Origin: Eledone cirrhosa
Lineage: Eukaryota
Assembly (NCBI GenBank): GCA_964016885.1
Contig: OZ024742.1
Coordinates: forward strand, 274,846,001 to 274,910,000
Reading direction: 5' to 3'
Length of the DNA: 64,000 nt
Part shown: one piece after another, positions 3,613 to 56,448 of the stretch
Layout of the letters: every line of letters begins with the position of its first letter
Position numbering within the stretch: position 1 is the stretch's first letter
Translations under genes and position numbers: made by a program
The notes under the pieces: model-generated
What the model was told of the DNA's origin: nothing
Seen by the model: only the letters and a program-made list of their open reading frames with translations
The model's database searches: none

Positions 3613-4388
3613 TAAAGATTTACATATACATAAAGTCATATATGTGGCAACCGGTCACGTTGTGGCTCAATGAAGAATTAATAAATTAAATAATCAGAGC
3701 AATATATCATAAATCATGTCCTTAGAATTATTAGATAAAATATATACCATTTCCTCTCCCAATTAGCATAATTAACCATATAAAAATCAATTAGACCAGG
3801 CTATAAGAATAAAGGCTCATATGAAGAAATTTTCGACAAATAACCGAAAGCGGCCTCTTAGCGGTGGCCCCAATAGATTATTTATCCAACATTTCAACAG
3901 CATGTAGAAACTGACTAAAGATACCGTCAACCATACACAATTAGGTGTAAATTCAAACTTAGAAGAAATGTGTACATACCGTAATTATATCTCTACCATG
4001 GTTTCGTCCGTATTTTTAGACATCCTATTATCAGGATATATCCAGAGTAACAGACTCATCAGGAGAAAACTCAAGATTGGACAGTTAATTTTCCAAAGTG
4101 ATCGCGCCAGAAATAGATTAAAAAATGGCTAAGAATCGTGACGTGGCAGTGGTCAAGTTAGAAAGAATGTGATTAGTTGCTTACAGCGGGTAGGCTTGTT
4201 GCTAGAAAGCGCAGCCCAGTATCGCACAATTGTATCTCAACCTAACGGGAGATTATTAAATATAAAGATTTACATATACATAAAGTCATAGATATATATG
4301 TGGCAACCGGTCACGCTGTGGCTCAATGAAGAATTAATAAATGAAATAATCAGAGCAATATATCATAAATCATGTCCTTAGAATTATA
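3611..4388 (-). mobile_element. Retrozyme-like element: 650-bp non-coding monomer x1.2, (TA)n-flanked, HHR on minus strand
   Basis: tataaagatttacatatacataaagtc occurs at 3611 and 4261. The ORF track lists no ORF starting in the unit. HHR at 3990-4066. Confidence 0.75.
3990..4066 (-). ncRNA. Type I hammerhead ribozyme, canonical core
   Basis: Minus strand: TCTC CTGATGA GTCTGT...ACGGAC GAA ACCATGGT A GAGA. Stem I TCTC/GAGA, stem II GTCTGT/ACGGAC with an inner hairpin, palindromic stem III, GUA site. Confidence 0.85.
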
Positions 4389-4701
4389 TATATATATATA
4401 TACAGGGAGAGACAGAGGATGATAGGTAGATAGATAGATGCATACAAGCATACGTGCAGAGGTAGTTTCGTACGTAGCTCTCTCAATAGTTTTCTCACCC
4501 TACTGAGAGATGGGGAGGGCAAGAGAGATGGAGGGGATGGAAGTGGGAGTTCGGCTGTTCTTTCCTATTCACTTAGGTTACTATTTCCTTTTCTGTGAAA
4601 AAGTTATATACCTCCATTTTTGCATTCCATTGGATGTCATTGTTAACGACCACTTCCACTTTCTTTTCTACATCATCTTCAATGTCGTTATCTTTGTGAT
4701 C

Positions 4702-4762
4702 ACAACAACTACTACTACTACTACTACTACTACTACTACTACTACTACTACTACTACTACAA
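4702..4762. repeat. (ACT)n trinucleotide microsatellite
   Basis: Direct reading; source of the poly-T and poly-S pseudo-ORFs. Confidence 0.95.
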
Positions 4763-4959
4763 CCCCCTTTAAGGAGTGTGTTTTTAATACTCTTTAGTGA
4801 TATTGGTATTGTAAATGACTTTGTATGTAGGATTATATTTACTTTCATCTTTAGGCAAATTTATAAGAATACACATGCACGTGTGCGCGCACGCGCGCAC
4901 ACATGCACATACACAGACTCACACACGCACACACACATACGAATATATATATATATATA

Positions 4960-5656
4960 TACATTTAAAGTATATGATAAACACGAAATGTGTTTACATT
5001 GCAACAGACAAAGTTAGCTATTAACTGCTCGGAAGAGCCCCTTCCTGGAGCTTAATTATTGTAAACGACTGAGAGTTTATTCTCAAAATATAATATAATG
5101 TATAGCTCCTTTATTGTAAGAGCTGATCCTTAATCCTGCATAAGCGGCTGTTATTTCTAGCACCGTGAATGTGGGATAGCTAGTTTTGGCCTGCCTACCC
5201 ACGTGTAGTCAGACCTGCAAAATTTTTGATGTGAGATAGACTAATCTTACTGGATTCCTGTTGATAAGCACAGAAGATTTGTACATTTCACTCTTATATT
5301 TCTATTCCATTTCGATTCTCTTTATTTTTCAATTCACATTCCACCGTTGCGAAACTTATTTGGGTTTCGAGGTTCAAATTCGTCTACAGAACAGGTTTGA
5401 ATTTTGAAATTTAAATATGTCCAGGAATCATGGCCGTTGCCAATATAATCTTGTCTTTATTGACTTGTATCGAGACAGACAAATTGTATTCACTTTTATT
5501 AGTTTATTTCATTAATAGCTAACTTTGTCTGTTGCAATGTAAACACATTTCGTGTTTATCATATACTTTAAATGTATTAACTGCTCGGAAGAGCCCCTTC
5601 CTGGAGCTTAATTATTGTAAACGACTGAGAGTTTATTCTCAAAATATAATATAATA
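4960..5656 (+). mobile_element. Retrozyme-like element family A: 556-bp monomer x1.14 plus a 65-bp 5' inversion, in (TA)n
   Basis: ttaactgctcggaagagcc occurs at 5021 and 5577. 4960-5024 is the reverse complement of 5512-5576. Variant HHR at 5253-5429. Confidence 0.75.
5253..5429 (+). ncRNA. Extended type I hammerhead with U3-A8 core
   Basis: GATTCCTG TTGATAA GCA...TGC GAAA C[~27-bp hairpin 5355-5419]GTC CAGGAATC. Stem I is 8 bp perfect; cleavage predicted after C5421. Confidence 0.8.
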
Positions 5657-52870: not shown

Positions 52871-53730
52871 TAACAAACTAACCAAAATCCAATCTCTAAT
52901 TTTGCTATCGGAACAACCACACGCGTACGTTCTTGTGGATAAGCCACTCCAATAGATCCAATAGCATTTCACACCAGTAGTTTATCCCAGCTAAGTGTTT
53001 GTGATTAGGAGTGACGGAGTATTCATTTATCAAATAAGAGTAGTTAAGATGGGATTATTTCACCAGAATTGCTTTATTGCATGATATATATTTCTGTCAC
53101 ATGGTTATGCATCAGGTTCTGTTGCTATCATAGTTGTAATTATGCAATCATTGAGATATGTCACTGGTCATGTATTACCATCCTGCTGTGATACCAGTAA
53201 ATATATGAGCCTCGTTACTTATTAAGTCATATTAGTAGATGTATCAGCCTTCTGATAGGTTGAGTTTATGGTCTCTCGGTAAAGTTCCCATACTTAATTG
53301 TTGACAGATTTAGCGCAGCATCTCAGCTTGTGGTCTATTACTTCGCCCTTTGTCCATAGTTCTCGCTATCATCATATCTCCTTTGCAGTTGGTCAGAGTG
53401 ACACTTGCACCAGCAAATCTAGGGAAGGGGACAGGATTTACGGCTTGCTTTGATGTTAGCGGTATCATCGCTGCTTTTGTAAACACCAACAACTACCATG
53501 ACAACAACAACAACAATAACAACACGATTTACATTAATGAAGACTGATGGTGATGCTAGAAATAATACTACTACAATTACCTACATTATAAACATTAAAT
53601 AAATATAAATATGTATATAATGTAAAATACAATATATTACGTATAATAACAGTGATATTAAATGTACTGTTACAATTGGTAAACTATAGATGTAAACAAC
53701 GATAATGATTATTCCAATAATTAGAAAAAC

Positions 53731-54942
53731 ATTTGATTGGTCGGTAGAGGTCACGTGAATGTTAAAAATTGATTTTAGCGCGAACTGGTTTGGCGCCAAA
53801 TATAGGTTTGTCGAAGAGTGTCCTTTTTCGCTTGATTGAGTTGCAGTCATGTTGAGAAGTCACTGAAAAACATGTCTATTAAGACAAATATGTGTGTGTA
53901 TGTGTGTATGTGTGTATGTGTGTGTGTGTGTGTGTGTAGTAAAGAGGTTCATTGTTGTGATAATGGTCAGTAGGGATGTGTGTGAGAGTTGCAGTCATGT
54001 TGAAAGGTCAACAGTTCAGGTGTCTATTAAGACAAATATGTGTGTGTGTGTGGGTGTGTGTGTAGCAGAGTGGTTCGTGGTAGAGGGAATGAATCGGTCA
54101 GTAGGAATGTGTGTGTACGTGTGTGGGGGGTACTTTAACATGTTGAAACATATTTTTCAGCTCTTGTCTTATACGGAGAAGTGTGTGTGTGTGTGTATGT
54201 CTGTTTGTATGTTAGTGTACGCGTGTGTGTGTGTGTGTGTGTGTGTGTGTGTGTGTATATATATATATGTGTGTGTGTGTGTGTGTGTATGGATGGACCT
54301 ATCGAATAATGTACACCATTTTTACCAATATCACAAAAATACTGGTCCATCCACACACACACACACACACATATATATATATACACACACACACACATAC
54401 ACACATACATACACACACACATACACACGCGTACACTAACATACAAACAGACACACACACACACACACACTCACACACACACACATACACACACACACAC
54501 ACACACACTTCTCCGTATAAGACAAGACCTGAAAAATATGTTTCAACATGTTAAAACACGTTCACACACATTCCTACTAACCGATTCATTCCCTCTACCA
54601 CGAACCACTCTGCTACACATATTTGTCTTAATAGACACCTGAACTGTTGACCTTTCAACATCACTGCAACTCACACACACACATCCCTACTGACCATTAT
54701 CACAACAATGAACCTCTTTACTACACACACACACACACACACACACACACACACACACACACACACACACACACACACACATATTTGTTTTAATAGACAT
54801 GTTTTTCAGTGACTTCTCAACATGACTGCAACTCAATCAAGCGAAAAAGGACACTCTTCGACAAACCTACATTTGGCGCAAAACCAGTTCGCGCTAAAAT
54901 TAATTTTTAACATTCACGTGACCTCTACCGACCAATCAAAAT
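53731..54942. repeat. Large inverted repeat (arms ~53731-54296 / ~54345-54942, ~50-bp spacer)
   Basis: The arms are reverse complements and differ mainly in (CA)n lengths and a few substitutions. Confidence 0.9.
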
Positions 54943-55367
54943 TGTTTTGACTACAAGAATTTTTGCAACACGAATTGACGCTAAATTTATAATACTTATT
55001 CACGTGACATTCAACAACCAACCAAATCTTAATACCTCTGGAGCCACTTTTTTCACATAAAACAAGAAGAATTTGCAAAACTGATCAGATTAGAGCAAAC
55101 ATCACGAGCGCTCTATCTCAAAATTATTTTTGAAAAGCATTAGAAATGCGCAACCGGTAAAAACTTAAAACTAAAACTAAATACTAACCAATAGTTATTA
55201 CTAATTTTTACTTATTCCTAATTCAAATATTTTTCACTGGGAAACATTTTTCAGCATTTTCTATTCCTTTTTACTAATATATCACAATTCGTGTGTAACA
55301 CCTCTATTTTTTTAATATATATATATATATATATATATATATATATATATATATATATATATATATA

Positions 55368-56448
55368 TATAGTATAAAAGAGAAAACACAGGTAAGCATT
55401 AAGAGAAGGATTTTATCCAGGTATTTACGACCGTTTCATTGGTAAGTGCAACCTTATATTGCTATACTGCAAATAGCAGCCACTCAATTATAATTGTTGT
55501 TCACAGTCCAAATTTTCAAAATAGTAAGTTACTCTTGAAATAATTCTTAATATATAGAGAAAAACATTTATTTGGAATTGTATTTACTAGTATAGAGAGA
55601 GAGGAATCAGGAGGTGAGGGGACAGACGGAATAGTATAGAGAGAGAGGAAGGGGGAAGAGGTAGGAAGTAGAATGACAAACTGTGATGGAGGGAGGGGTA
55701 GAGGTGGAAGGATTCTTTGGTCAGTTTTGATAGCAGACTTCATGTCGTGGAGTGTAGTGAGTTAAAGAGAATTAAATTGATCATAGTGGGAGGGGTGGAT
55801 AGAGAGGGAGAGAGAGAGGGGGGGGAGATATAAAGAGATAAATATATATATATAAAAATAAAGATAAAGATAATAATGACAAAAACAAAAGCAAAGGGGG
55901 TGAGAAAGAAGAAAAGAAAAGATAGCCAAGAAGTGGAGGGAAGGAAGGAGGAAAACGAAGAAATAGAAGAGGAATGAGGGAGAAGAGGGGGATATATGTA
56001 TTGGTTTTGTGGGTAATTAAAGGGTTTAGATACAAGAGGGTATAAAGTCTAAGTATATGCAGTTTATCAGTTGGTAGTAAGAGGTTAAGGGTTCGATTTG
56101 TAGTGCGAAAACTTCTCTTTGAGTCTATGGTTACAATAAATTGATCTCTCGATTTTATTGTTGAGTAACTTATTCTTCGAACTTAAGATATGGAACAGCT
56201 CAAGGTCGCATAATCGACAGCTTCTCATACCACTCCGATATGGGGGCGCGTTCGATAACTTTTTCCACTTCAGGGTGTATTGATGGTTACTTTCCCTTTG
56301 AAAATTTGGACTGTGAACAACAATTATAATTGAGTGGTTGCTATTTGCAGTATAGCAATATAAGGTTACACTTACCAATGAAACGGTCGAAAATACCTGG
56401 ATAAAATCCTTCTCTTAATGCTTACCTGTGTTTTCTCTTTTATACTAT
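55368..56448 (-). mobile_element. PLE 3' remnant with inverted pLTRs; U3-A8 HHR at 55422-55523 (-) and a damaged copy at 56298-56395 (+)
   Basis: KWK..PYRSGMRSCRLCDLE...LLN...CNH. HHR reads TATT TTGAAAA T TTGG...CCAA T GAAA CGGTCG TA AATA. Confidence 0.78.

Follow-up and report, generated by a model that had tools for sequence, protein, structure and literature searches.

We analysed a window of 64,000 nucleotides (contig OZ024742.1, positions 274,846,001 to 274,910,000, forward strand), in which a first-pass annotation had listed hammerhead ribozyme motifs at 32 sites. The window has a G+C content of 36-37%, and (TA)n and (TG)n runs are plentiful. Its recognisable open reading frames (ORFs) are transposon remnants, namely the reverse transcriptase (RT) with GIY-YIG endonuclease (EN) from Penelope-like elements (PLEs), a non-LTR RT (LTR, long terminal repeat) that we take to be of the RTE type, an apurinic/apyrimidinic (AP) endonuclease, a Helitron and the integrase of an LTR element. 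Judged by these transposable elements, the window appears to be animal DNA, and none of the ORFs tested was recognisable as a host exon. The hammerhead motifs, grouped into families F1 to F19, and the PLE remnants among which they lie are as follows, with pLTR standing for the pseudo-long terminal repeat of a PLE.

1149 to 2486, plus: Hydra-type PLE thumb-linker-endonuclease remnant with CxCX5C
3213 to 3330 (C3 to N17), plus: hammerhead F1, intact core, C·A at 10.1·11.1, 99-nt stem II rod, 9-bp stem I; Hydra-type endonuclease 727 nt upstream
3994 to 4062, minus: hammerhead F2, intact, stem II of 50 nt, palindromic stem III; nothing coding was found in the vicinity
5261 to 5360, plus: hammerhead F3a, U3-A8 core, helices decayed; within a 556-nt unit with terminal repeat, end at (TA)n
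7910 to 7990, plus: hammerhead F3b, U3-A8 core, helices decayed; in a 564-nt partial tandem, 7491-8396
8788 to 8842, plus: hammerhead F4, intact core, 36-nt stem II
9377 to 9417, plus: hammerhead F5a, U4A, U·U at 10.1·11.1
9879 to 9919, minus: hammerhead F5b, U4A, U·U at 10.1·11.1
10603 to 10641, minus: hammerhead F6a, two core changes (U4C, A9G)
12458 to 12492, minus: hammerhead F7a, intact core, stem II decayed; CX4CxxC-type endonuclease remnant (12751-13845, minus) 259 nt upstream
14372 to 14404, plus: hammerhead F7b, U3·G8, without stem I, inverted partner of 12492; endonuclease remnant 205 nt upstream
14894 to 14927, plus: hammerhead F8, intact, compact; sole Rfam hammerhead match (HH9, under the gathering score)
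15645 to 15682, minus: hammerhead F6b, U4C
16132 to 20923, plus: Neptune-type PLE, CX4CxxC linker, CCHH, direct pLTRs at 16132-16958 and 20106-20923
16716 to 16750, plus: hammerhead F7c, stem II base broken, in the Neptune-type PLE
20681 to 20715, plus: hammerhead F7d, G12A, in the same PLE
22670 to 23374, plus: Hydra-type linker and endonuclease with CxCX5C, CxxC and CxH
24798 to 24836, plus: hammerhead F9, C3·A8; endonuclease end 23374 lies 1,424 nt upstream
25035 to 25064, minus: hammerhead F10a, intact U3-A8 core; Hydra-type linker remnant (25645-25890, minus) 581 nt upstream
28511 to 30077, plus: 2.2 tandem copies of the non-coding 708-nt unit F11, flanked by two (TA)n runs
29069 to 29187 and 29777 to 29895, plus: hammerheads F11, intact cores, 95-nt branched stem II
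30299 to 30326, minus: minimal hammerhead F12, two core changes; RT and GIY-YIG ORF 594 nt upstream
30917 to 32170, minus: PLE ORF fragment, RVT_1 and GIY-YIG, Neptune/Nematis-like linker
34495 to 35427: non-coding ~520-nt unit F13, partial tandem and inverted copy, bounded by (TA)n runs
34670 to 34739 (minus), 35191 to 35260 (minus) and 35301 to 35370 (plus): hammerheads F13, identical, intact core, C·A at 10.1·11.1, 49-nt stem II
35577 to 36513: 5'-truncated Hydra-type PLE, endonuclease 35798-36283 (minus), inverted pLTR
35615 to 35644 (minus, stem II broken) and 36446 to 36475 (plus, intact, U·U and 2-bp stem II): hammerheads F14
38047 to 38361: inverted pLTR pair with hammerheads F15 at 38097-38146 (minus, G5A) and 38263-38312 (plus, intact core)
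39187 to 39732, plus: Hydra-type endonuclease remnant near F16
40850 to 41218: inverted pLTR pair with hammerheads F16 at 40964-40992 (minus) and 41076-41104 (plus), both C3·A8 with U·U at 10.1·11.1
42433 to 46448: near full-length broken Hydra-type PLE, RT-EN 43207-45589 (minus), tail, inverted 5' pLTR, (TA)n at each end
42655 to 42755 (minus, intact, U·U, 82-nt stem II) and 46285 to 46386 (plus, U3·G8): hammerheads F17
49970 to 50044, plus: hammerhead F18, intact core, 56-nt stem II, stem III decayed; Hydra-type endonuclease remnant 48675-48932 (plus) upstream
51438 to 52897, plus: Hydra-type RT-to-linker remnant
55130 to 55159, plus: hammerhead F10b, U3-A8, A13C; stem II covaries with 25064
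55377 to 56440: 5'-truncated Hydra-type PLE, endonuclease end 56070-56297 (minus), inverted pLTR
55426 to 55519 (minus, intact U3-A8, U·U, 75-nt stem II) and 56298 to 56391 (plus, U16.1A): hammerheads F19
62470 to 63761, plus: Hydra-type RT-EN remnant, 3' end beyond the window edge

Census of the motifs and shuffled controls

Each of the 32 sites listed earlier fell on a type I hammerhead that could be parsed as stem I, YUGANRA-like core, stem II, GAAA, stem III, UH and stem I, or on a decayed copy of one, according to a hand-checked list and automated scores. The descriptor, scored by stacking energy, reached at least 10 at 23 of these sites, and six more are sequence copies of such a member. 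Support is weaker at 5261, 7910 and 49970, all on the plus strand; the first two retain both core halves across a diverged pair, and the third has a Hydra-type endonuclease 1,038 nt upstream. Two motifs absent from the earlier list, at 3213 (position of C3; top score, 25.6) and 55130, both plus, bring the total to 34, in 19 families by blastn and about 24 insertions. The earlier statement that the motifs lie on both strands and belong to many families was confirmed: 20 are plus-strand and 14 minus-strand motifs. Nine insertions hold 19 of the 34 as inverted or tandem duplicates.

An early version of the descriptor demanded a pair adjoining A9 and G12. It was widened to tolerate U·U or C·A at 10.1·11.1 and longer stem III loops; the widening was made after the real sites had been read and is post hoc, and the shuffles were scanned under identical rules. 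For the control, simple repeats were masked and dinucleotides were shuffled in 500-nt blocks (200 shuffles). With the relaxed YUGANRA core that had been proposed as a check, we found 19 real matches at a score of at least 10 as opposed to a mean of 0.57 in shuffled sequence (maximum 3), so that a similar shuffled rate was not seen. Intact cores at the same score numbered 14 against 0.32 (maximum 2), and those with a stem II span of at least 45 nt numbered 9 against 0.16 (maximum 2). Allowing at most one core change and a score of at least 8 gave 36 against 7.0 (maximum 12; 25 shuffles), and because the excess is about 29, "about 30" motifs is a fair figure. The stricter early descriptor, with at most one core change and a score of at least 10, gave 9 against 0.4-0.8 (three block sizes, 100 shuffles for each).

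Descriptors that required a Watson-Crick or G·U pair next to A9 and G12 recovered only 4-12 good motifs because U·U and C·A are rejected there. Rfam returned no hammerhead match in the window at the gathering score, a result that tests one library and not the definition of the ribozyme. Its best match below the threshold was HH9 at 14876-14958 (21.7 bits versus 52; E 0.82), and the 110 rows at E<=10 were chiefly microRNA models on microsatellites and palindromes, with one hammerhead row.

Several high scorers were judged likely artefacts and excluded from the 34: matches on (TA)n runs at 21467, 22035 and 22259; those at 40958, 41110, 38450 and 38579, where palindrome arms serve as stem I; and lone ones in coding or unlinked DNA such as 6259, 33155, 33697, 58146 and 59667.

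Condition of the cores and helices

We defined the core as C3-U4-G5-A6-N7-G8-A9, G12-A13-A14, A15.1-U16.1 and H17, with U3-A8 counted as allowed. It is intact in 20 of the 34 motifs (19 of the 32 listed sites), changed once in 12 and twice in two. The 14 altered cores carry U4A (twice), U4C, U4C with A9G, U4C with A6U, G5A, C3·A8 (three times), U3·G8 (twice), G12A, A13C and U16.1A. Fourteen motifs, eight on the plus and six on the minus strand, combine an intact core with good helices, and the six other intact-core copies score lower owing to decayed helices. From A9 to G12 the motifs span 11 to 99 nt, and the wide range of stem II noticed earlier (2 bp to about 90 nt) holds, running from a 2-bp stem to 99-nt spans.

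Compensatory changes were found in two comparisons. Between the related families F17 and F19, C3-G8 is replaced by U3-A8, and A-U by G-C both at the fourth stem II pair and at 15.3-16.3; within F10 (25064 versus 55130), G-C is replaced by U-A in stem II. These double-sided changes, three and one, respectively, were read by eye from few sequences. The folding z-score of the stem II span lies below -2 in seven of 14 spans (3213, 4062, 8788, 29069, 29777, 34739 and 55519), being strongest at 3213 (-4.3), 4062 (-3.6) and 29069 (-3.4), and folding better than shuffles was not seen in the other seven, including F3, F17 and F18. Minimum-energy folds of whole motifs mostly failed to yield the hammerhead fold.

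The two F5 copies (9377, plus; 9919, minus) share U4A, yet both keep a 4-bp stem III hairpin and 5-6 bp of stem I, and they face inward across one microsatellite, unlike the usual diverging pairs. In these copies and in the unrelated 36446 (plus), stem II is short, closes with U·U and has a loop of the GCTAA type. A decayed YUGANRA-like box, uncounted here, occurs at 53852 (plus) and 54820 (minus) in nested inverted repeats (53726-54948) split by (TG)n.

Association with Penelope-like elements

The first-pass annotation had pointed out that the pLTRs of PLEs carry hammerheads, and the position, strand and duplication pattern of the motifs support this origin. In 21 of the 34 motifs, the cut site is followed within 200 nt by a (TA)n run of at least five units; such a run precedes it in three, the rate at random positions being 16%, and the median distance from a hammerhead to the next (TA)n run is 167 nt. 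Of the 16 places where a PLE endonuclease or linker has its 3' end, 10 have a sense motif within 800 nt (1 of 16 for antisense motifs and 23% at random) and 13 have one within 1.5 kb (5 of 16 for antisense motifs and 39% at random). Both tests are independent of the hammerhead descriptor. Three ends have no motif within 1.5 kb: at 52897 the nearest is 2.2 kb away, at 61250 none was found, and 63761 is at the edge of the window.

Ten coding remnants match a profile made from 152 relatives of the endonuclease at 22823. Hydra-type ORFs with a CxCX5C linker, CxxC and CxH and without CCHH lie at 22823-23377 and 63209-63649, with partial ones at 2094, 48702 and 56085; CxCX5C was found in 119, CxxC in 141 and CxH in 134 of the 152 relatives. 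Five other coding remnants have a CX2-5CxxC-type linker or match such a copy. C-terminal CxCX5C, CxxC and CxH motifs and insertion into (TA)n are described for Hydra-clade PLEs (Craig et al., 2021; PMC8557442). The element at 42433-46448 displays the full layout, in which (TA)n is followed by the tail, a hammerhead-bearing pLTR, EN, RT, an inverted 5' pLTR that holds another hammerhead, and (TA)n again. Moreover, seven diverging inverted pairs, whose arms are 88-99% identical, and partial tandems are arranged in agreement with the legend to Fig. 2 of the same paper.

On this evidence, we are confident that the motifs are pLTR hammerheads of PLEs, mostly of the Hydra type and some of the Neptune/Nematis type, plus non-coding derivatives, that the insertions include old as well as young ones, and that the cluster is explained thereby. 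The motif set is for the most part made up of decaying remnants of a known kind of mobile element.

Reverse transcription of PLEs begins internally, which gives the tail (PMC11167929). Each family has a single type I hammerhead, which lies in the pLTR close to the 3' end of the element. Copying would start downstream of it and usually halt early, leaving short 5'-truncated copies that retain the motif. The elements insert into the common (TA)n runs, and a second pLTR, often added in inverted or tandem orientation, doubles the hammerhead count. In the parent element, as published work on PLEs suggests, the hammerhead would cut a tandem precursor RNA, mostly as a dimer through its palindromic stem III, and after insertion most copies would decay without function. 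The high density would then follow from the many PLE families, the plentiful (TA)n target and 3'-biased copying, and a host function is not needed to account for it.

Several points weigh against this interpretation. Fifteen of the 34 motifs (10 families) have no linkable coding remnant, and their parent is deduced from their ends at (TA)n and from how they are duplicated; three of these 10 families are non-coding units of 520-708 nt in partial tandems. The links over more than 1 kb (24798, 41076 and 49970) or 2.2 kb (55130) are loose, no motif was found downstream of the endonuclease end at 61250, and duplicates inside one insertion are non-independent in all counts. The Hydra clade call rests on motifs, not on a tree. 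The near full-length copy lacks an intact DKT and reads YKT there (44880-45600), and among the 152 relatives, mostly short sequences, DKT is found in 11 and RWK in two. Finally, Pfam failed to detect the Hydra-type endonucleases.

Non-coding tandem units

F11 (708 nt) and F13 (about 520 nt) have a complete hammerhead in two consecutive units each, and the F3 unit measures 556-564 nt. The profile of 152 relatives gave no Hydra-type coding match in the F11 or F13 units. Beyond being truncated PLE ends, these three families could be non-LTR retrozymes, with expression as circular RNA from which new copies spread. Such retrozymes (PMC7229834; Li, Clavereau and Pollet, 2026, bioRxiv 10.64898/2026.07.22.740005) likewise consist of tandem units that are non-coding and contain a single type I hammerhead apiece. 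The single hammerhead per unit, the head-to-tail partial tandems in which no ORF was found, the two intact cores on one strand in both F11 and F13, and sizes within the 51-972 bp range given by Li et al. (2026) all speak for this possibility. However, the arrays in the window reach at most 2.2 units, and their (TA)n ends and inverted 5' copies are insertion marks of PLEs.

We also aligned four of 15 sequencing runs to one F11 708-nt unit, to which 1,236 contigs of run X1 and 2,106 reads of run X13 fitted. Summed X1 contig depth, which does not equal copy number, amounted to 28,000-42,000 over the hammerhead and up to 236,000 in the 3' tail (eight contigs listed have depths of 5.6-34), a sign that the family is very abundant and 3'-heavy. 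Across the 3' end, the depth drops from 93,528 to 922 in X1 (about 100-fold) and from 209 to 65 in the restriction-site-associated DNA (RAD) reads of X13 (about 3-fold), which argues that most copies do not run into a next unit. Loose ends at 29342-29370 continue into (TA)n in X1, X4 and X6, which carry three organism labels. In the 40 variant rows considered out of 145, C occurs at 29883 in nearly all reads, making 15.2-16.2 a Watson-Crick pair, and at 29831 in most, giving a Watson-Crick pair in a stem II arm. Head-to-tail joints in the reads were discarded as evidence of arrays, since the reference unit begins inside the element.

We regard spreading from circular RNA as unlikely, albeit not far-fetched; the two explanations overlap, as Li et al. 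(2026) treat retrozymes as non-autonomous PLE derivatives.

Read-through cleavage

The first-pass annotation had further proposed that any read-through transcript could be self-cleaved. As a general claim this is not supported, because 14 of the 34 cores are changed and, by sequence, at most 14 motifs look competent. Most of the remaining motifs have a short palindromic stem III that would need a second copy; those with CCATGG, TGCGCA, CCGG, CAATTG or CTAATTAG close just 2-3 bp alone. PLE hammerheads are described as lying in the pLTR, with a short palindromic stem III and weak dimeric cleavage (PMC4209133; reviewed in PMC6765202), and no cleavage by a single minimal hammerhead and low cleavage by dimers were reported (Cervera and de la Pena, 2014; PMC4209133). 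As dimers form only with a partner on the same strand whose stems I and III match, dimer cleavage would be offered only by 34739/35260 and 29069/29777, the only same-strand tandem pairs with both cores intact. In the seven diverging inverted pairs, read-through RNA would include an antisense arm able to pair with the ribozyme. A few cuts may still occur, for instance at 14894 or 29777.

Could the cluster nevertheless act on the host, cutting read-through or intronic transcripts and being retained for that? The 14 motifs with an intact core and good helices, a few of which (14894, 29777) could form a stem III of 3-4 bp alone, would permit it, and a hammerhead from axolotl whose helix II has U·U at its base showed 22% monomer cleavage in one hour (PMC7229834). 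We nonetheless consider such a role very improbable: besides the altered cores and the inverted arms, partners inside one insertion decay independently, no host exon was recognised in the tested ORFs, and the strands show no bias (20 versus 14, a small number), whereas intronic cutters would be expected to be sense-depleted.

That a loose pattern has merely hit repetitive, A+T-rich DNA by chance is scarcely credible, in spite of the empty Rfam result, the post hoc broadening, the 7.0 of 36 matches expected randomly with one core change and the probably random matches at 33155, 33697 and 59667 inside RTE and Gypsy coding regions, and is refuted for the set by intact cores that never exceeded two in 200 shuffles, by the excess under the stricter descriptor and by the descriptor-independent orientation to (TA)n and endonuclease ends; it may hold for single weak sites such as 49970.

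Possible half-core relatives and other repeats

A hairpin element of about 190 bp was inserted twice (32557-32749 and 38489-38678), each time between (TA)n runs. Its arms contain the hammerhead 3' half only, consisting of a stem II strand, GAAA, a 4-bp stem III with a palindromic loop, UC and a stem I strand; both copies turn back at an identical point, and one arm has a tail of about 90 nt. The element looks like a propagating non-autonomous PLE derivative without the CUGANGA half. A 370-bp palindrome at 20965-21372, flanked by (TA)n, contains CTGATGAG in both arms, roughly 15-20 nt in from where the arm ends, and has a tail of about 35 nt on one side. Inspection by eye found no stem support in it for a type I or type II hammerhead, and it resembles the half-core cases listed for Naiad elements. 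A short repeat adjoining (TA)n at 22070-22260 and 24907-25017, once palindromic, has a CTGAGGT...GAAA pattern without supporting stems.

An LTR element at 57238-60707 has 729-bp direct repeats (92%) around integrase-coding fragments on the minus strand, and a Helitron Rep fragment lies at 46969-47757. Non-LTR retrotransposon fragments at 32870-34400, 27253-27696, 11135-11853 and 56512-57190 encode RT and AP endonuclease and include a related pair that is 74% identical. A GIY-YIG-like ORF fragment of another PLE type lies at 60732-61250. A repeat of about 197 nt, in tandem at 15068-15461 and with further copies at 1304-1405 and 62331-62473, has a B-box-like word on the minus strand and is presumably a tRNA-derived short interspersed element.

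Comparison with published hammerheads

The motifs share with Hydra-clade PLE hammerheads (Craig et al., 2021; PMC8557442) the type I fold, the 3'-end position, insertion into (TA)n, U·U at the stem II base, a short palindromic stem III and the CxCX5C, CxxC and CxH of the endonuclease. In File S2 of that paper, U·U at 10.1·11.1 is present in 14 of 26 Hydra-clade rows by our count and C·A in one PLE-X row. U3-A8, U10.1·U11.1, a 2-bp stem II and U4C are natural core variants (Perreault et al., 2011; PMC3088659), and the axolotl HHR_Amex2 (PMC7229834) likewise has U·U at the helix II base. We thus dropped U·U and C·A as a new variant. The variants of Perreault et al. (2011), as far as considered here, do not include U4A, which both F5 copies have and which may be an inherited defect, and U3-A8, present in window motifs, is in no Hydra row of File S2.

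Metazoan PLE minimal hammerheads (PMC4209133) similarly form many heterogeneous families in a genome, mostly as single truncated copies, with opposite-strand pairs 100-700 bp apart, and have an extra base after A9, U3-A8, a palindromic stem III and dimer dependence. In contrast to these, most window motifs retain 4-11 nt in stem III, and only 30326 is truly minimal.

Stem II also differs in length. The A9-G12 span is at most about 26 nt in the 26 Hydra rows of File S2, whereas it is 49-99 nt in 14 copies from eight families here, with 56-99 nt in the four that are linked to a Hydra endonuclease and 49-95 nt in the four that are not. In File S2, only two spike-moss PLE-X rows come near 50 nt. 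We found no paper on a long stem II in retrotransposon hammerheads, and a motif search of the Craig et al. (2021) supplement gave nothing new; long forms may be covered by Lunse et al., by the Terminon paper and by supplementary figures in Cervera 2014. Between F17 and F19, distal stem II has diverged while the double-sided changes lie in the core and helix bases, a pattern that would suit a tolerated insert no less than a kept domain.

Density and implications

The window contains 14 intact and 34 total motifs in 64 kb, corresponding to about 220 and 530 per Mb. The axolotl genome has 126,247 motifs (PMC7229834) in 28.21 Gbp, or about 4.5 per Mb, and totals of about 4,000 and 9,000 per genome are given for coelacanth and Xenopus (PMC4209133). 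The local density is about 50-120 times the axolotl average, for one window that was chosen for its density and scanned with a looser pattern than the published one. The striking density noted at first is hence borne out locally, with about 220 intact motifs per Mb in the window alone, and we found no paper on such a density of hammerheads. The initial finding is correct yet an expected footprint of PLEs. Its unusual points appear to be the packing density and the stem II arms that exceed the published examples compared, and as the kind is known, both are modest extensions.

A bolder proposal combines the two points: the window would be typical of a genome with 10^5 to 10^6 hammerhead motifs stemming from a Hydra-clade PLE radiation, a large share of them an overlooked active form whose stem II, a rod or a branched domain of 50-100 nt, is kept by selection, perhaps as a binding site for the element's protein or as a folding timer, and is missed by short-spacer searches. 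We hold this joint claim to be tentative and rather doubtful. If true, published counts, and some calls of PLEs with "no canonical hammerhead", would be underestimates.

The 19 families constitute a natural size series of stem II, from 2 bp to 99 nt on one core, which, should the finding hold genome-wide, would be useful for studying the requirements of PLE hammerheads and the retention of long arms. If the density holds genome-wide, the animal could serve to test whether masses of PLE hammerheads cut host transcripts.

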